Below, piece by piece: positions 9,955-63,265 of a stretch of DNA of 64,000 nucleotides. Source of the DNA: Chloroflexota bacterium (GTDB taxonomy: Bacteria; Chloroflexota; Dehalococcoidia; UBA2979); the NCBI GenBank assembly GCA_027593235.1, contig JAQCIU010000001.1, positions 27,038 to 91,037 on the forward strand. Reading direction: 5' to 3'. Both the position numbers and the translations under genes were made by a program. Position 1 is the stretch's first letter. Each line of letters opens with the position of its first letter. A model generated the notes under the pieces. The model saw nothing but the letters and a program-made list of their open reading frames with translations, had not been told where the DNA came from and searched no databases.

Positions 9955-10081
9955 GGGGTCTTCGACCCCCTTCTAGACGCTTCGCGCCTGTTTGCGCAGG
10001 TGCGGAGCGCGGGAGACTTGGGCGGTCGGTGGAGTGGGTTGAGCTAGCGAATTCGCGCGGCCCGGTGCGTATCCTCACTGG

Positions 10082-11479
10082 ATGCTGTTGACCATCTCAA
10101 CGACGCACCGGCCAGCCGACGACCTCGGCTACCTGTTGCACAAGCATCCGCAGCGCGTGCACGAGTTCGCGCTGCCCTACGGCACGGCGCACGTCTTCTA
10201 TCCCGAAGCCACCGAGGACCGTTGCACCGCCGCGCTGCTCCTCGAAATTGACCCGCTGCACATCGCGAGGCGGGGCTTTGGCGTTGCCGATGCGGCGCCG
10301 CTGGGCGCCTATGTGAACGACCGGCCGTATGTGGCGTCGTCTTACCTCAGCGTCGCGCTAGCGAAAGTCGTCGGCTCGGCGATGGGGGGACGCAGCAAGG
10401 AGCGCCCCGAACTCGCCGGCACCCCGATCCCGCTGATCGCGACGCTCGAGGTGGTGCCGTCACGCGACGCGGGCGTTCCGCGCCGGCTGTTCGAGCCGCT
10501 GGGCTACCGCGTCGAGACCTCGAGGTTGGCGAACGACCTCCTCGATAGCCCCGGCGCCGCGGAGCCGGCGCTGAGCCCGTACGTGACGCTACGCCTCGAG
10601 GGGACCGTGACGGTTGCCGAGCTGCTGACGCACCTCTATGTCCTGATGCCCGTGCTGGACGACGCGAAGCACTACTTCATCGGCGACGACGAGGTCGAGA
10701 AGCTGCTGAGCCGTGCTGGCACGTGGTTGTCCTCCCATCCCGAGCGCGAGTTCATCGCCACGCGCTACCTCAAGCACCAGCGGTGGTTCGCGGACGCCGC
10801 CCTCGCGCGCCTGTCCGAGGGTGCTCCGCCGCTCGAGGAGGAGGTCGACGCCCCGGACGTTGAGCCGGCAGTCCCGGCGACGCCGCTGAACCAGCAGCGC
10901 ATCGATGCCATCGTCGCGGCGCTCCACGGTGTCGGCGCGCATACGGTCATTGACCTCGGATGCGGCGAGGGCCGTCTCCTCGGCGCGCTCTACGAGGATC
11001 GTGACTTCACACGCATCGTTGGGATGGACGTCTCGCCCTGGTCGCTGCGCGCAGCCGGGCGACGGTTGCACCTCGACAACCTGCCGGAGCGGCAGCGGGA
11101 CCGGTTGCAGGTGATGCAGGGGTCGCTGCTCTACCGCGACGCGCGGCTCAGCGGCTTCGACGCCGGTGTCCTCTCCGAGGTGATCGAGCATATTGAGCCG
11201 GACCAGTTACCACGCCTCGAGCGGGTCGTGTTTGGCGAGGCGCATCCGAACGCCGTGATCGTCACGACCCCGAACCGTGACTTCAACGCGCGTATCCCGG
11301 CGCTCGCTGCCGACGAGCGCCGTCATCGCGATCACCGCTTCGAATGGTCGCGGGCGGAGTTCGGCGACTGGGCGACCTCGGTTGCCGAGCGGTTCGGGTA
11401 CAGCGCCGAGGTCGGCGGGATTGGCGAGGCCGATCCGGCGCTGGGGTCGCCGACGCAGGTGGCGGTGTTCCGCGCATGA
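10082..11479 (+). CDS. hen1: Bacterial Hen1, the RNA 3'-terminal ribose 2'-O-methyltransferase of the Pnkp-Hen1 RNA-repair system.
   Basis: A 465-aa protein with a C-terminal SAM-dependent methyltransferase domain (VIDLGCGEGRLL...GMDVS). It has the length and architecture of bacterial Hen1. The stop overlaps the pnkp start by ATGA. Confidence 0.75.
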   Translation: MLLTISTTHRPADDLGYLLHKHPQRVHEFALPYGTAHVFYPEATEDRCTAALLLEIDPLHIARRGFGVADAAPLGAYVNDRPYVASSYLSVALAKVVGSAMGGRSKERPELAGTPIPLIATLEVVPSRDAGVPRRLFEPLGYRVETSRLANDLLDSPGAAEPALSPYVTLRLEGTVTVAELLTHLYVLMPVLDDAKHYFIGDDEVEKLLSRAGTWLSSHPEREFIATRYLKHQRWFADAALARLSEGAPPLEEEVDAPDVEPAVPATPLNQQRIDAIVAALHGVGAHTVIDLGCGEGRLLGALYEDRDFTRIVGMDVSPWSLRAAGRRLHLDNLPERQRDRLQVMQGSLLYRDARLSGFDAGVLSEVIEHIEPDQLPRLERVVFGEAHPNAVIVTTPNRDFNARIPALAADERRHRDHRFEWSRAEFGDWATSVAERFGYSAEVGGIGEADPALGSPTQVAVFRA

Positions 11480-13824
11480 ACCTCACCGTTCCGAAGCTCA
11501 GCCTCGTCGTGCTGGTCGGCGTCTCCGGTTCGGGAAAGTCGACGTTCGCGCGGACCGCGTTCGAACCGTCCGAGGTGCTGTCGTCCGACCACTTCCGCAC
11601 GCTGGTCGCGAACAACGTCGAGGACCAGTCCGCCACCCCGGACGCATTCGAGGCGCTCCAGTTCGTGGCGGGCAAGCGGCTCGCGCGCGGGTTGCTCACG
11701 GTGATCGACGCGACCAACGTGCAGCCGCAGGCGCGGAAGCCACTCCTCGATCTCGCGCGTGCGCACGACGTGTTCGCGGTCGCGATCGTCCTCGATGTTC
11801 CGCTTGCGGACGCGCTGGCACGCAACGAGGCGCGCGCCGACCGGGTGACGCCGCCACCGGCGATCCGCCGGCAGCACGACCAGCTACGGCGTTCGATTCG
11901 CCGGCTCCGCAAGGAGGGCTTCCGCTTCGTCCATGTCCTCGATGGCTCCGAGGACCCTGCGTCGATCACGATTGAGCGAGAGCGGTCGTGGAACGACCGC
12001 CGCTACGAGACCGGCCCGTTCGACATCATCGGCGACGTGCACGGCTGCTTCGACGAACTGCGGGCGCTGCTCGACCGCCTCGGCTACAACGTCCGGGAGA
12101 TTCCCGAAGCAGGGCTGCCGCACAGCTTCGAGGTGACCCCGCCGGCGGGACGGCGCGCGATCTTCCTCGGTGACCTCGTCGACCGAGGGCCGGACACGCC
12201 TCGGGTGCTCGGGCTGGCGATGAGCATGGTCCGAGGCGGCTCCGCGCTGGCGGTCACCGGGAACCACGACGACAAGCTGTTGCGGGCGCTGCGCGGCAGG
12301 CGGGTGCAAACGACGCACGGCCTCGCCGAGTCGCTGGAGCAGCTCGCACGCGAGCCGGAGGGCTTCCGGGCGGAGGTGGTCGAGTTCCTCGATGGGTTGA
12401 TCGCGCACTACGTCCTCGATGGCGGTCAGCTCGTGGTCGCGCACGCGGGGCTCAAGGAGCCGTACCAGGGCCGCGCCTCCGGACGCGTCCGCAGCTTCGC
12501 GCTGTACGGCGAGACCACCGGCGAGACCGACGAGTTCGGGCTGCCGGTCCGCTACCCGTGGGCGCAGGTGTATCGAGGCGCCGCGACGGTGGTGTATGGC
12601 CACACGCCGGTGCTCGAGGCGGAGTGGGTGAACCGCACGATCTGCGTCGATACGGGGTGTGTGTTCGGCGGCAGGTTGACCGCGCTCCGCTATCCGGAGA
12701 ACGAGCTGGTCTCAGTACCGGCTGTCCAGATCTACTACGAGCCGATTCGCCCGCTTGCGGGCGCCGAGCCCGATGAGCGCGAGCGGGATCTCCTCGACAT
12801 CAACGACGTGACAGGCAAGCGGATCGTCTCGACCGGGCTCGCCGGCAACGTCACGATCCTCGAGGAGCAGTCCGCGGCCGCGCTGGAGGTGATGAGCCGC
12901 TGGTCGATGGATCCTCGGTGGCTGCTCTACCTGCCGCCGACGATGTCGCCGCCCGAGACGAGCACGGATCCGGGGCTCCTCGAGCACCCGGCCGAGGCGT
13001 TCGCGTATTTCCGCAAGCAGGGTGTCGCCGAGGTCGTGTGCGAGGAGAAGCACATGGGCTCGCGGGCGATCGTCGTCGTCTGTCGCGACCCCGAGGTGGC
13101 CGCCCGCTCGTTCGCACCGGCCGAGGCCGGCGGCGTCATCTACACCCGCACCGGCCGGCGCTTCTTCGAGGATCCCGAGCTGGAGCGGGCGCTCCTTGAT
13201 CGCGTGCGGGCGGCGCTGACCAGCACCGGCCTATGGGACGAGCTCGACACCGACTGGCTGGCGATCGACGGCGAGATCATGCCGTGGTCCTACAAGGCCC
13301 ACGAGCTTCTGGAGCGGCAGTACCTCCCCGTCGGCGTCGCCGCGACGGCGTCGCTTTCGAGGGCGGTCGAGCTGTTGCGCGCCACGGAGGCACGAGGCGT
13401 CGACGTCTCGGCGCTTCGCTCCCGCATCGAGGAACGGGTACCGCTCGCCGATCGCTACCGGGAGGCGCTGCGCCCGTACTCCTGGGCGGTTGGCTCGGCG
13501 GACGACATCCGCTTCGCTCCGTTCCAGTTGCTGGCCAGCGCGCCCGAGGTCCTCGCGAGGCGTGACCACCGCTGGCACATCGAGCTGTGCCAGCGTCTCG
13601 CCGACGCGGACGGGCAGGTGATCGTGACTACGCCTTCGCGCGTGGTGGAGATCGCCGACGCCGCCGCGCAGAGCGAGGCCACCGAGTGGTGGCTAGGGCG
13701 GACGCGGACCGGCGGCGAAGGCATGGTCGTGAAGCCTCTCGGCGAACGGGCGCTCGACCGGCGGGTGCAGCCCGGCGTGAAGGTCCGCGGCCGCGAGTAC
13801 CTCCGCATCATCTACGGGCCGTAG
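11476..13824 (+). CDS. pnkp: Polynucleotide kinase-phosphatase Pnkp, ending at an in-frame TAG.
   Basis: Three domains are present: a P-loop kinase (GVSGSGKST), a calcineurin-like phosphatase (GDVHG, GNHD) and a C-terminal adenylyltransferase/ligase domain (EEKHMGSRAIVV). The start was set at ATG 11476 (MNLTVPKL). The same frame stays open and protein-like for 65 more codons beyond the TAG, up to TAA 14017-14019. Confidence 0.8.
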   Translation: MNLTVPKLSLVVLVGVSGSGKSTFARTAFEPSEVLSSDHFRTLVANNVEDQSATPDAFEALQFVAGKRLARGLLTVIDATNVQPQARKPLLDLARAHDVFAVAIVLDVPLADALARNEARADRVTPPPAIRRQHDQLRRSIRRLRKEGFRFVHVLDGSEDPASITIERERSWNDRRYETGPFDIIGDVHGCFDELRALLDRLGYNVREIPEAGLPHSFEVTPPAGRRAIFLGDLVDRGPDTPRVLGLAMSMVRGGSALAVTGNHDDKLLRALRGRRVQTTHGLAESLEQLAREPEGFRAEVVEFLDGLIAHYVLDGGQLVVAHAGLKEPYQGRASGRVRSFALYGETTGETDEFGLPVRYPWAQVYRGAATVVYGHTPVLEAEWVNRTICVDTGCVFGGRLTALRYPENELVSVPAVQIYYEPIRPLAGAEPDERERDLLDINDVTGKRIVSTGLAGNVTILEEQSAAALEVMSRWSMDPRWLLYLPPTMSPPETSTDPGLLEHPAEAFAYFRKQGVAEVVCEEKHMGSRAIVVVCRDPEVAARSFAPAEAGGVIYTRTGRRFFEDPELERALLDRVRAALTSTGLWDELDTDWLAIDGEIMPWSYKAHELLERQYLPVGVAATASLSRAVELLRATEARGVDVSALRSRIEERVPLADRYREALRPYSWAVGSADDIRFAPFQLLASAPEVLARRDHRWHIELCQRLADADGQVIVTTPSRVVEIADAAAQSEATEWWLGRTRTGGEGMVVKPLGERALDRRVQPGVKVRGREYLRIIYGP

Positions 13825-14245
13825 TACACCCTCGACGGCCAGCTCTCGCGGCTGCGGAACCGCAGCGTCGGGCGGAAGCGATCGCTCGCCACGCGCGAGC
13901 ACGCGCTGGGTCTCGAAGCCCTCGATCGATTCGTCGCGGGCGAGCCGTTGTGGCGCGTCCACGAGTGCGTCTTCGGCGTGCTCGCCCTCGAAAGTGACCC
14001 GGTCGACCCGCGGCTGTAACGTCCGGACGCCCGGGTCGCGGTGGCCGCACCCGCCCGTGCCGTCTTCGTGCTGTCGCTCCTCGGCGCCGCCGGCTACGCG
14101 ATGGCCGCGCTCCTCACGCCGAGGACACCACCCACCGCGCCGCTCGAGCGGTAGCACCCGGAACGCCGCTGGCGAGACCGCGAATGAACGCCACCAACCG
14201 AGGGCGCTGGACACCACCGGTAGATCAGCGTCGTTCGCCAGGACC

Positions 14246-32705: not shown

Positions 32706-33011
32706 ATGCTTGCTTCACTTGGCCGCTGGTCATTCAAGAACCCCTGGCTCGTACTCGCGAGCTGGGTCGTCGTGCTGGTCGCCGTCTTCGGCTCCGTCGC
32801 GACCTTCGGCACTGCCTTCAGCAGCGCCTTCGAAATCCCGGACTCCGAGAGCCGCCGCGGCTTCGACGTCCTCGACAGCAACTTTGGCGGGTTTGGCAGC
32901 GGCCAGACCGGTTCGATCGTCTTCCGTACCGACCCGGACCTCGAGGGCGGCGTCGCCAATCCCGAGGTCCGGGCGGCGATGGAGCGGCTCTTCGCTGACG
33001 CCGCCGCCTGA
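32706..33011 (+). pseudogene. N-terminal fragment (101 codons) of an MMPL-family (RND superfamily) transporter gene.
   Basis: MLASLGRWSFKNPWLVLASWVVVLVAVFGS... is the canonical MMPL N-terminus: TM1 followed by the start of periplasmic domain 1. A TGA stop occurs after 101 aa, and the next gene's ATG follows immediately. Intact MMPL proteins are 700-1000 aa. Confidence 0.5.
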
Positions 33012-60431: not shown

Positions 60432-61232
60432 TTACAGGCACTTGGGATTGTGCCCGTTGGGGTTGCAGTTTTTTGGGGTCGGGATCGGTGGTGCCGTTGG
60501 GATCGGCACTGGCGTCAGCGTCGGAATCGGCGTCAGCGTCGGCAGTGGGGTCAGCGTCGGCAGTGGCGTCGGCGTTGGTGTCGGCGTTGGTGTCGGCGTT
60601 GGCGTTGGCGTTGGCGTCGGTGTCGGCGTTGGTGTCGGCGTTGGCGTTGGCGTTGGCGTCGGTGTCGGCGTCGCGCCGGGGGTGGCGGTCACCGACCCCG
60701 CCGGTGCCGGCGAGCCGGGTGTCGAGGGCGCGTCGTTGCCGGTGGCGAAGTCGGAGGGTGACGGGATGCCGTCCTCGTATCCCGGGTCGTTCGACAGAGG
60801 CTGGTCGTTCGGGTGGGGCGTCCGGCTGGCGTTCGGTGTCGAGGGGATGCGAGGAGTACGGGTTGGCGCTGGGGTGCGCACGCCCGCGGCTCCCGGACCT
60901 TGAGTGGGGCTGGTCGCGAGTTCGCTCCCCGCGTCGGCGGCGTCCGCCGTGGGCGCGGGAATCGCGAGGGCGCGCGAGTCCTCGGCGGCGGCGGCGATCA
61001 CCGCCGGGCTGAGTGGCTGAAGGCGATGCGTTGTGGTGTCGCGGGCGTAGTCCGCGACGAGCCGCGAGGTGAGTTCGCCAACGACGCGGGCGTCTGGTGG
61101 CCGCGCGGAGCCGGCCGACGCGCCGAGGGTGGTGGTGCCGAAGGCGGCGAGCGTGACGAGGATCGCCATCAACGCGGTGACCGCCGCGGCGCGGAGACTA
61201 CGCCGCATGATGCGTGTGCCTCTCCGGACCAT
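60432..61232 (-). CDS. Secreted protein with a long Thr-Pro repeat linker and a C-terminal Cys-bracketed motif.
   Basis: Signal peptide, then (TP)x17 plus PLPTLTP repeats, ending KNCNPNGHNPKCL. The DNA shows GGYGTY hexamer periodicity between 60540 and 60690. Confidence 0.55.
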   Translation of the reverse strand: MVRRGTRIMRRSLRAAAVTALMAILVTLAAFGTTTLGASAGSARPPDARVVGELTSRLVADYARDTTTHRLQPLSPAVIAAAAEDSRALAIPAPTADAADAGSELATSPTQGPGAAGVRTPAPTRTPRIPSTPNASRTPHPNDQPLSNDPGYEDGIPSPSDFATGNDAPSTPGSPAPAGSVTATPGATPTPTPTPTPTPTPTPTPTPTPTPTPTPTPTPTPTPLPTLTPLPTLTPIPTLTPVPIPTAPPIPTPKNCNPNGHNPKCL

Positions 61233-61368
61233 GCGGATGGGGCCGGTCCGACCCGGCGCCGTTGAGGATGTGCAGGCGAGCCGTCGAGTCGAGCCCCTTG
61301 AGCGCCGGATCGTCGTGGATGCGCTGCTCCCACAGCTCCGCGACGCGGGCCATGGTGGCGACGACGTC

Positions 61369-62985
61369 CTAATCCAGCAGCCCGCTTTCCGCTTCGCGGA
61401 AGAGAATCTTCAGCGCGGCGTTGATGGAGAGGCCGGCCCGATACGGGCGGTCCGTGGTGAGGGCGTCGTAGACATCGGCGACGGCGGCGATCCGAGGGAA
61501 GACAGTCAGCTCATCGGCGGAGAGGGCGAAGGGGTAGCCGGTGCCGTTAAGTCGTTCGTGGTGCTGTCCGACGACGGCGAGGACTTCTGGCGGGAGGAAG
61601 ACCGACTCGAGGATCTCGAGGCCGACGCGGGGGTGCTCCTCGATGACGCGTCGTTCCTCGGGGGTGAGCGCGCCGGGCTTGAGGAGGACGGCGTCGCGAA
61701 CGCCGATCTTGCCGATGTCGTGAAGGTAGCCGCCGACCTGAAGGTGCTGGAGCTGACCTTCGGACAACCCGAAGCCGTCGCCGAGCTCGACCGAGAGGTG
61801 GCCGACACGGACGGAGTGTCCCCGCGTGTAGGGATCGCGGGCGTCGACGGCGGAGACGAGGGCGCGGATGGTCCCAAGGTGCTGGCTCTGCAGGCGTTCG
61901 GTCATCGCATCAAAGGTGGTGGCGAGGGCGCCGATTTCGTCTCCGCTTCTGACACCGCTGCGGACGGTGAGATCGCCGGCGGAGACGGCGTCCGCCGCGC
62001 GGACGAGGCGGCCGAGCGGGGCGGTGATGACACGGGCGAGGAAGAGCCCGATCACGAGGACGATCAGCGTCGCGATGCCGAACAACGTCGCCATCTGGGT
62101 GCGCGTGGTCTCCCCGGCGCTGGTGACGAAGGAGGTGGGGAGGGCGACGGAGAGCGTCCCGATCGGATTGCCGCGCACGTACATCGGCACGTACATGAAC
62201 TGGTAGTCGCGACCAGAGAGGAGCTGGGTGTCGCGGAGTCCACTGCCTGCCACGGTAGCGGCGACGGCGGGAGAGTCCTGCACCTGGTTGTCGGCATCGA
62301 GGACGAAGGTGGAGAGCAGGAGGCCGCCGTAGCTGTCGTAGAAGGTCACGTCAGCGAACGACTGCTGCTTGATCGAGGTGAGTAGCGCGCGGAGTGGGCT
62401 GGTGACCACCACGACGCCGGCGACCGTCGTCCCGTCGTAGATCGGCCCGGCGGTCACCAGCAGCGGCCCGCCGCTGGTCTGAACGACCGAGGCGAACTTG
62501 TCGCCGCGGCCGTCGCCCTGGCCGGTGAGCGCGGTTGCGGAGACCGCTGCAGTGGCCTGGGTGGCCACGTCTTCCGGGATCGCTTCGTAGGTGAGCAGGT
62601 CGGGATCGACGAGGCGTGCGGCATAGAGCACGGCACCCGACCGATCGAGGATGTAGACCGCGTCCGTGGCGCTGTTCGCGGCGATCGGCAGGACGATTCG
62701 CTCCGTGGCGGCGGGGTCGTGGCGAGCGACAGCGCGCTCAATGCCCTCGGTGAAGGAGACCGCGCGGATCACCTCGAGGTGATCGCGTTCGCGGCGAACG
62801 ACGTTGTCGCCGGCGGTGCGCGCCGATTCCGCGAGCTGGTTCGCGAAGCGGACCTCGAGCGATCCGGCAACGACGCGGGTGACGAGGTAAGTGGAGAGGC
62901 CGGCGAGGGCGAGCGCCAGCACGAGGTACGGCCCCAGGATCTTCCAGCGGATCCGCGCTCTGATTTGTGGCCGCAGACGTCCCAT
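61369..62985 (-). CDS. HD-GYP-domain phosphodiesterase with an N-terminal membrane-anchored sensor domain and a HAMP domain.
   Basis: The HD motif (YLHDIGKIGV) and the GYP region (HHERLNGTGYPF) are present, with two TM helices flanking a ~250-aa extracytoplasmic domain. Confidence 0.8.
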   Translation of the reverse strand: MGRLRPQIRARIRWKILGPYLVLALALAGLSTYLVTRVVAGSLEVRFANQLAESARTAGDNVVRRERDHLEVIRAVSFTEGIERAVARHDPAATERIVLPIAANSATDAVYILDRSGAVLYAARLVDPDLLTYEAIPEDVATQATAAVSATALTGQGDGRGDKFASVVQTSGGPLLVTAGPIYDGTTVAGVVVVTSPLRALLTSIKQQSFADVTFYDSYGGLLLSTFVLDADNQVQDSPAVAATVAGSGLRDTQLLSGRDYQFMYVPMYVRGNPIGTLSVALPTSFVTSAGETTRTQMATLFGIATLIVLVIGLFLARVITAPLGRLVRAADAVSAGDLTVRSGVRSGDEIGALATTFDAMTERLQSQHLGTIRALVSAVDARDPYTRGHSVRVGHLSVELGDGFGLSEGQLQHLQVGGYLHDIGKIGVRDAVLLKPGALTPEERRVIEEHPRVGLEILESVFLPPEVLAVVGQHHERLNGTGYPFALSADELTVFPRIAAVADVYDALTTDRPYRAGLSINAALKILFREAESGLLD

Positions 62986-63265
62986 CGAGGCTTCCCGACC
63001 TGGCCAATCCCCGTGGATGTGGCCATCTCGGTGAGATGTTCGACAGACGCCGTTGTGGAGGAACTCGGGTGAATGCTGACTGCGGTGAGTGGCGGTTCAG
63101 ATTGTCAGTATTGAGTGCGTATGAGAATCGTGATCGGGAATCGAATGACAGTGTGTTGTGTGAAACCGGGACTGCGCGCCAGGTTGAGTGACCGAGCGGT
63201 GCGCAATCGCGGAGCCGCGGGCGAACTGCGGAAGAGCCACGTGCGATGCCGACGTCGACCGATCG

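Follow-up and report, generated by a model that had tools for sequence, protein, structure and literature searches.

A 64,000-nucleotide stretch of DNA from an uncultured Chloroflexota bacterium (GenBank assembly GCA_027593235.1, contig JAQCIU010000001.1, positions 27,038 to 91,037 of the forward strand), referred to here as the window, carries a hen1-pnkp RNA repair operon in which the pnkp reading frame is interrupted by an in-frame amber codon (TAG). We consider it highly probable, at roughly 0.82, that this TAG is a real and very recent allele of pnkp in a near-clonal population, and that it yields a Pnkp protein of 782 residues. A nearly identical sister strain carries the glutamine codon CAG at the same position, and the sequence beyond the stop retains the conserved C-terminus of Pnkp. 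The event is of an ordinary, already known kind in an already known system, and no new coding mechanism is implied.

An amber codon near the end of pnkp

The two genes of the operon are co-oriented, and the ATG of pnkp at 11476 shares the sequence ATGA (11476-11479) with the TGA stop of hen1. The features of the operon and the catalytic motifs of pnkp that we located in the sequence are as follows.

10082..11479, plus strand: hen1, intact; encodes a 465-residue 3'-terminal RNA ribose 2'-O-methyltransferase that is also the ligase activator
11476..13824, plus strand: pnkp frame as encoded, 782 codons followed by the amber stop
11518-11544, plus strand: kinase P-loop of pnkp, GVSGSGKST
12022-12045, plus strand: phosphatase motif of pnkp, DIIGDVHG
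12169-12189, plus strand: phosphatase motif of pnkp, GDLVDRG
12259-12270, plus strand: phosphatase motif of pnkp, GNHD
13048-13062, plus strand: ligase motif I of pnkp, KHMGS
13717-13737, plus strand: pnkp motif EGMVVKP
13780-13791, plus strand: pnkp motif KVRG
13822-13824, plus strand: amber TAG at codon 783, in frame after ...EYLRIIYGP; base 13822 is polymorphic
13825..14019, plus strand: orphaned pnkp tail, 64 sense codons and the TAA at 14017-14019; corresponds to the last three ligase helices and is untranslated if the TAG is a stop

The identity of both genes is clear from profile matches. Hen1 matches TIGR04074 (bacter_Hen1) with 621.6 bits against a cut-off of 340 (residues 2-464 against model positions 1-461/462), and Pfam detects Hen1_L plus methyltransferase domains. 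In the 782-residue Pnkp, Pfam detects AAA_33 (the kinase) at residues 10-143, Metallophos (the phosphatase) at 181-379, and PNKP_ligase at 468-782. The ligase match spans positions 1-317 of the 377 in the model and ends right at the TAG.

The initial annotation had placed the TAG at 13822-13824, in frame after ..EYLRIIYGP and with the frame open to the TAA at 14017-14019, and both the coordinates and the sequence are correct. It had also proposed that the frame beyond the TAG encodes a conserved Pnkp C-terminus, and this is borne out. The tail (YTLDGQ...DPVDPRL; in longer form YTLDGQLSRLRN...ESDPVDPRL) closes with the invariant ESDPVDPRL at 13990-14016. On its own, the tail matches positions 319-377 of the 377 in PNKP_ligase with an E value of 2e-25. 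When the TAG is read as a residue, Pnkp is 782 + 1 + 64 = 847 residues long, which is the usual size for the family, as had been expected. With X at the TAG, this 847-residue protein aligns end to end with TIGR04075 (bacter_Pnkp; residues 1-847/model 1-851) and scores 1317.6 bits, well above the trusted cut-off of 750. Its alignment with the Clostridium thermocellum ligase domain (PDB 4drf, E 2.6e-141) likewise passes through the TAG and reaches the final residue of that domain, with the TAG opposite the Glu of RIIYGPEYT. Given the Pfam, TIGR04075, and 4drf matches, the tail is the true C-terminus of Pnkp, and the TAG took the place of a sense codon. Codon usage gives a coding signal on both sides of the TAG, with log-likelihoods of 22.9 bits in the 40 codons before it and 16.8 bits in the 40 codons after it; the 95th percentile for noncoding frames is 11.

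Homologs place the end of Pnkp where the orphaned tail ends. Past this position, the tail is 62-64 amino acids long (median, 64) in the 118 homologs in which the motif was found. It is exactly 64 amino acids long in 78 of 80 GTDB pnkp loci, a set that we used only for base rates and for residue 24 of Hen1, and 76 of these loci finish in DPRL. Among approximately 200 homologs, none ends at the position of the TAG, and the sequence downstream of it is related to Pnkp.

The window locus is a disrupted member of the bacterial Pnkp family. It contains the three catalytic modules with their signature motifs (the P-loop; DxH/GDxxDR/GNH(D/E); and KxxG) and an adjoining, co-oriented hen1. The feature of the family that it lacks is an unbroken open reading frame (ORF) through the C-terminal alpha-helical module to the DPRL end, as the TAG intervenes at codon 783; such an ORF is present in the allele of the sister strain (P0241, on contig L005) and in 78 of the 80 GTDB loci. 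We compared the locus with the Pnkp-Hen1 system of C. thermocellum using structures of the ligase bound to the N-terminal part of Hen1 (4drf/4e6n), the ligase (3ty5/3ty8/3ty9), the phosphatase (4j6o), and the kinase (4gp6); the ligase belongs to the Rnl4 RNA ligase family. The two systems share the order of the operon, with hen1 upstream and co-oriented (in the window, the genes overlap by ATGA), as well as the three modules (kinase, binuclear metallophosphoesterase, and adenylyltransferase/ligase) with every catalytic motif kept, and 48 of the 64 tail residues (75%) are identical. They differ at codon 783, which corresponds by alignment count to approximately Glu806 of the C. thermocellum protein and is a stop in the window, so that the encoded product ends 64 residues before the C-terminal helical module is complete. 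Gln at this position in the intact sister allele is also a departure from the family, which has Glu or Asp. A more distant parallel is the three-protein Pnkp1-Rnl-Hen1 complex of Capnocytophaga (PDB 4xrp/4xru; PMC4411300), in which a related ligase, Rnl, is activated by the N-terminal part of Hen1. In that complex, however, the ligase is a separate polypeptide of about 20% identity and the phosphatase comes from a different superfamily, whereas the window encodes the fused type of Pnkp; the window protein has only a weak local match to 4xrp (E 4.6e-5).

Two alleles of codon 783

The truncated protein has a single other member in its 90%-identity cluster, an intact 847-residue Pnkp with Gln at position 783 (P0241). 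Its source is a Logan contig (L005) from a different run, SRR19040531. A base-by-base comparison of this contig with positions 9973-14208 of the window reveals 2 differences in 4,236 bp (99.95% identity). One lies at position 13822, where the window has T and the sister contig has C, so that codon 783 is TAG in the former and CAG (Gln; L005:3850-3852) in the latter. The other lies at position 10153, in codon 24 of hen1, which is CAG in the window and CAC in the sister contig (Q/H); residue 24 of Hen1 varies among the homologs compared in the GTDB loci. Because the stop is one transition away from a Gln codon in a nearly identical strain, it appears to be a very recent, strain-level polymorphism, with a tail that would have had no time to decay. 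In the scenario that we favor, the C/T transition at 13822 would separate the two alleles, and both would be segregating in the near-clonal population. Of the three options that the initial annotation had left open (a recent nonsense mutation, a sequencing error, and a read-through or recoded stop), the nonsense mutation is the one favored by the CAG allele of the sister contig, by the presence of the TAG in two assemblies, and by the use of TAG as the usual terminator.

The locus closely resembles a classical amber (CAG to TAG) pseudogene confined to one strain: one transition affects a Gln codon, a sister strain has the intact allele, the homologous sequence in frame beyond the stop is undecayed, and there is no signal of recoding. 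It differs from such cases in nothing substantive; what is unusual is only its setting, in an organism that prefers TAG as terminator and at a distance of 47 kb from a second amber.

The organism belongs to a poorly sampled Chloroflexota lineage. The exact 782-residue product is recorded on 4 public contigs, and the exact Hen1 protein is recorded on six. The intact 847-residue Pnkp was not found in the NCBI records of the organism and is known only from the Logan contig of SRR19040531; this absence would fit a situation in which the metagenome-assembled genomes (MAGs) held there carry the stop and have pnkp annotated as a pseudogene. Exact-pattern scans in which base 13822 was left free returned no match in GTDB genomes or JGI metagenomes, and a collection of 5.8 billion proteins contained no sequence closer than the known relatives. 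No paper was found that cites the accessions of the run or the sample. The nearest GTDB species representatives have Pnkp proteins that are approximately 61-63% identical, and the best matches are Dehalococcoidia MAGs.

The initial annotation had suggested GAG as the codon that the TAG replaced. Replacement of a sense codon stands, but GAG as the immediate neighbor does not, since the sister contig has CAG. For a member of this family, Glu was a sensible guess: at position 783, aligned homologs have E in 114 of 119 cases and D in 4 of 119, with Q only in P0241, and the GTDB loci have E in 68 of 80 and D in 11 of 80. GAG may still be an earlier step in the history of the codon. The closest diverged relative (P0002/L003, 83% amino acid identity) has GAC (Asp) at codon 783, and in the next closest (P0003/L004, 80%), an IS481-family element interrupts the gene upstream of this codon. 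Starting from an acidic ancestor, the codon needs two steps, through CAG (GAG to CAG to TAG) or through TAG (GAG to TAG to CAG).

TAG as terminator, a second amber codon, and alternative readings

This organism uses TAG as a stop codon. Among 37 confidently coding segments of the window, the terminator is TAG in 27, TGA in 7, and TAA in 3, and the coding signal ceases at those TAGs; sense and antisense frames were told apart by the signature of higher G+C content at the first than at the second codon position (GC1 > GC2) and high G+C content at the third (GC3). This preference for TAG sits in a genome of 68% G+C. Close relatives and a few Chloroflexota/Thermomicrobiales loci likewise lean to TAG, and TGA dominates small samples of other high-GC phyla (Actinomycetota, Myxococcota, and Gemmatimonadota). 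A literature search on TAG-dominant stop usage in Chloroflexota found nothing relevant.

Widespread in-frame TAG or codon reassignment was considered and rejected. Four of the five same-frame coding pairs that are split by one TAG are simply adjacent genes (ArsR and an SRPBCC protein; YyaL and a phosphodiesterase; a hydrolase and a cytochrome c; a lipoprotein and an unrelated gene). When we scanned every stop in the window and in approximately 14 kb of flanking sequence with a codon-usage likelihood score, only two ambers showed coding on both sides, the one in pnkp and one in a gene for an HD-GYP sensor protein.

61198-62988 (start at approximately 62988), minus strand: HAMP/dCache/HD-GYP sensor gene with the second amber, TAG 61369-61371; the frame runs 56 codons on to 61198

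Homologs of the HD-GYP protein are 575-610 amino acids long, several of them align across the whole extension, and W, E, P, L, and G residues within it are invariant in relatives. At the amber codon, the closest relative (P0122/L006, 74%) has CAG (Gln). NCBI lists the truncated 538-residue form as a normal protein (MDA0350660.1, MDA1145423.1), and an ATG five codons past the TAG opens a 51-amino-acid ORF that gene callers have annotated. Three runs (SRR2027816, SRR2027830, and SRR19040531) carry this amber unchanged. Because the last of these is the run with the intact pnkp, the HD-GYP amber appears to be older or fixed, unlike the amber in pnkp.

Neither amber shows signs of programmed recoding. 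The RNA next to the pnkp TAG folds no better than shuffled controls (z scores of -0.21 and -1.44), and the RNA at the HD-GYP amber has no unusual structure (z scores of -0.30 and -0.23) and no PYLIS-like element. The 64-kb window contains no tRNA gene and no Rfam family. The pnkp TAG is conserved in no ortholog, the codon being Q in the sister strain and E or D in approximately 200 homologs. Programmed recoding of the pnkp TAG, which the initial annotation had raised as a read-through or recoded stop, is thus not supported, because TAG is the main terminator (27 of 37), no ortholog keeps the TAG, and the window is without a tRNA, an Rfam element, or an unusual structure. In comparison with known systems of UAG decoding (pyrrolysine, TAG-to-Gln reassignment in phages, and supE-type suppression), the locus is alike in having an in-frame TAG where its closest relative has Gln and in having conserved sequence downstream. 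It is unlike them in that the TAG is unconserved among orthologs and is the dominant terminator, that no tRNA, Pyl genes, or structured element were found in the window, and that the locus is chromosomal rather than phage borne. Codon usage in the window makes TAG the expected outcome of 61-64% of one-step nonsense changes. The change of CAG to TAG accounts for 10% of such changes without transition bias and for 16-24% with bias, when it becomes the top path. No nonsense event would be more ordinary for this genome than an amber at a Gln codon, and ordinary decay in a near-clonal population could account for two CAG-to-TAG ambers in approximately 78 kb.

Several observations weigh against a real and recent amber allele that arose from CAG. 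The TAG contigs whose sequence was compared (2 of 4) all come from one run, SRR2027816/ERZ23495043; Q783 of the intact allele is itself unique among approximately 200 homologs; and the second amber, at a Gln position with an intact and conserved downstream frame, would also be expected from a suppressor that inserts Gln. The first of these bears on whether the T at 13822 is an artefact of sequencing, consensus calling, or assembly, or a promoted minority variant, in which case the organism would have CAG and an intact pnkp. We regard this as quite unlikely. The sister contig does have C at this base and differs almost nowhere else, and the compared TAG contigs do derive from the same read set, but two different assemblers returned T: the ENA scaffold made by SPIRE-style scaffolding (MEHR18-1_SAMN03444961, 93 kb; ERZ23495043) and the Logan contig of SRR2027816 (10 kb) are both 100% identical to the window, TAG included, which is assembly-level evidence from one run. 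In addition, 4 contigs carry the 782-residue product, the NCBI records of the organism include the neighboring Hen1 but not intact Pnkp (as would fit a pseudogene call), and random Illumina substitution errors do not reach the consensus at ordinary coverage. The sequencing error that the initial annotation had allowed for is accordingly disfavored. The uniqueness of Q783 bears on the direction of change within the real-allele scenario. In the opposite order, an ancestral GAG would have become TAG by a G-to-T change, and the CAG allele would be a later pseudo-revertant in which a T-to-C change restored the frame. An acidic residue (E or D) occupies position 783 in 118 of 119 aligned homologs and 79 of 80 GTDB loci, with Q confined to the intact allele of the same organism; Gln is the expected revertant from TAG by the commonest type of change, a transition; and the TAG-bearing run has the lower (earlier) accession number in the Sequence Read Archive (SRA). 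Against this, pseudo-reversion needs a knocked-out allele to persist and then revert, the closest diverged relative has GAC (Asp), so that the ancestral codon of the lineage may not have been GAG, and the path from GAG to CAG to TAG is no longer than the other and has the commonest type of mutation as its last step. Two haplotypes with two differences give no polarity of their own. We therefore treat pseudo-reversion as a possible but less favored variant of the real-allele explanation, its weight being a share of that scenario, and prefer CAG to TAG over TAG to CAG by roughly seven to three.

The second amber is what leaves a slim chance, because there are two CAG-to-TAG ambers in approximately 78 kb, that TAG is partly decoded as Gln, by a CUA suppressor tRNA or by leaky read-through, and that full-length Pnkp and HD-GYP proteins are still made. 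Both internal TAGs correspond to CAG in the nearest relative with a sense codon (L005 for pnkp and L006 for the HD-GYP gene), the frames downstream of both are intact and conserved, and the HD-GYP amber is identical in three runs. Efficient suppression would, however, lengthen most proteins of an organism whose main genuine terminator is TAG, and neither the orthologs, none of which conserves the TAG, nor the window, with its lack of tRNA, Rfam element, and unusual structure, speaks for it. The placement of both ambers at Gln codons has a probability of approximately 0.03-0.06 by chance under uniform or moderately transition-biased mutation, and a higher one if GC-to-AT transitions dominate, and so is weak evidence; in near-clonal populations, moreover, intact downstream sequence needs no selection. 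If a Gln suppressor or tolerated UAG read-through did operate, CAG-to-TAG changes at Gln codons would be phenotypically mild even though TAG is the main terminator, and only in that case would a new mechanism be implied. A split gene, in which the 64 C-terminal residues would be made separately and reassemble with the 782-residue protein, has a negligible chance of being correct. Its one point of support, and not a specific one, is that the tail frame has stayed open. Within the tail, translation could start in frame only at TTG (codon 825) or GTG (codon 835), for a product of no more than 22 residues; approximately 200 homologs show no split at this position; and the sister strain has a continuous gene. 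We rejected the split gene for want of a usable start codon in the tail.

What the probable truncation would remove, and loss of pnkp in relatives

The real amber allele that we favor would delete the most conserved stretch of Pnkp. Across the 118 homologs, 38 of the 64 tail positions (residues 784-847) are at least 95% conserved, compared with 100 of 315 positions elsewhere in the ligase domain, and the mean majority frequency is 0.86 in the tail and 0.76 overall. The ratio of nonsynonymous to synonymous substitution rates (dN/dS) against the closest diverged relative is 0.06 in the tail and 0.12 upstream. In the AlphaFold model of that relative's intact homolog (P0002), which has the same length and numbering and a predicted local distance difference test score (pLDDT) of mostly 80-96 in the ligase domain, the stop falls just past strand 768-771 and helix 773-780. 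Helices 787-794, 799-820, and 825-839 would be lost, along with the invariant ESDPVDPRL end.

In C. thermocellum Pnkp, the kinase (residues 1-170) and the phosphatase (171-424) are each autonomous, and the ligase combines an adenylyltransferase core with a helical insert that binds Hen1 and a unique helical module at the C-terminus (PMC3675462). Families of RNA ligases are defined by their appended modules, and the family here is Rnl4 (PMC6379707). In the Pnkp1-Rnl-Hen1 complex, a loop of the N-terminal part of Hen1 touches the C-terminal part of the ligase (PMC4411300), which suggests that the C-terminal region of the ligase matters for the partnership. With the TAG read as a stop, the 782-residue product would contain the kinase, the phosphatase, and most of the nucleotidyltransferase core of the ligase, including the Hen1-binding insert, and would stop short of the final three helices of the C-terminal alpha-helical module and of the invariant peptide at the C-terminus. 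Based on conservation and the P0002 model, we infer that the end-healing modules are kept and that the sealing module is crippled or unstable, a likely loss of ligase function. Since the truncated ligase domain would be inactive or unstable, the Hen1-Pnkp pathway could still heal RNA ends (5' phosphorylation and removal of 2',3'-phosphate) and perhaps methylate them, but would not seal them. The operon would in effect be undergoing pseudogenization in this strain.

This has consequences for annotation, as pnkp of this MAG is better described as a disrupted gene with an internal stop than as a gene for a 782-residue protein. The TAG/CAG allele pair amounts to a natural truncation that bears on the need for the C-terminal helical module of Rnl4 in adenylylation and Hen1-dependent sealing. 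The locus is also a small example of a Hen1-Pnkp RNA repair cassette that is dispensable and lost at the level of strains, by nonsense here and by an IS481 insertion in the 80%-identical relative. In that relative (L004:2893-3839; ENA ERZ24794642), homology to pnkp breaks off at a point that corresponds to window position 13754, approximately 22 codons upstream of the amber site, and the gene for an IS481-family transposase starts there, an independent disruption of the same C-terminal region of the ligase. Among the 80 GTDB pnkp loci, 78 are unbroken with the 64-residue tail, and two copies from Dehalococcoidia MAGs look disrupted. Because of these two copies and the copy cut by the insertion element, the cassette appears to be lost occasionally, as expected for an accessory stress or immunity system.

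The two disrupted-looking copies lie on Dehalococcoidia MAG chromosomes in GTDB (L031 and L039); one has a 1061-amino-acid ORF ending in HRFHDH and the other a 649-amino-acid ORF ending at a TAG before IIYGPEY. Either could be another disrupted or frameshifted copy or an error of long-read assembly.

Elsewhere in the window, a 101-amino-acid ORF at 32706-33011 (plus strand), which ends with TGA right before the ATG of the next gene, resembled the N-terminus of an MMPL/RND transporter by eye; it has no Pfam match, and this assignment was set aside as unsupported. Beyond the TAA that ends the tail, the pnkp frame stays open for 44 more codons (14020-14152, plus strand); the coding score of this extension is borderline (13.1), and it includes the hydrophobic stretch VFVLSLLGAAGYAMAALL. 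It may be a small membrane ORF or open by chance, and its DNA is not conserved in L003. ENA gene calling places a 154-amino-acid ORF without a Pfam match on the minus strand at 13693-14157, overlapping the orphaned pnkp tail in antisense orientation. Since codon-usage scoring favors the pnkp frame on the plus strand there, this ORF is probably a spurious call to which the amber gave rise.

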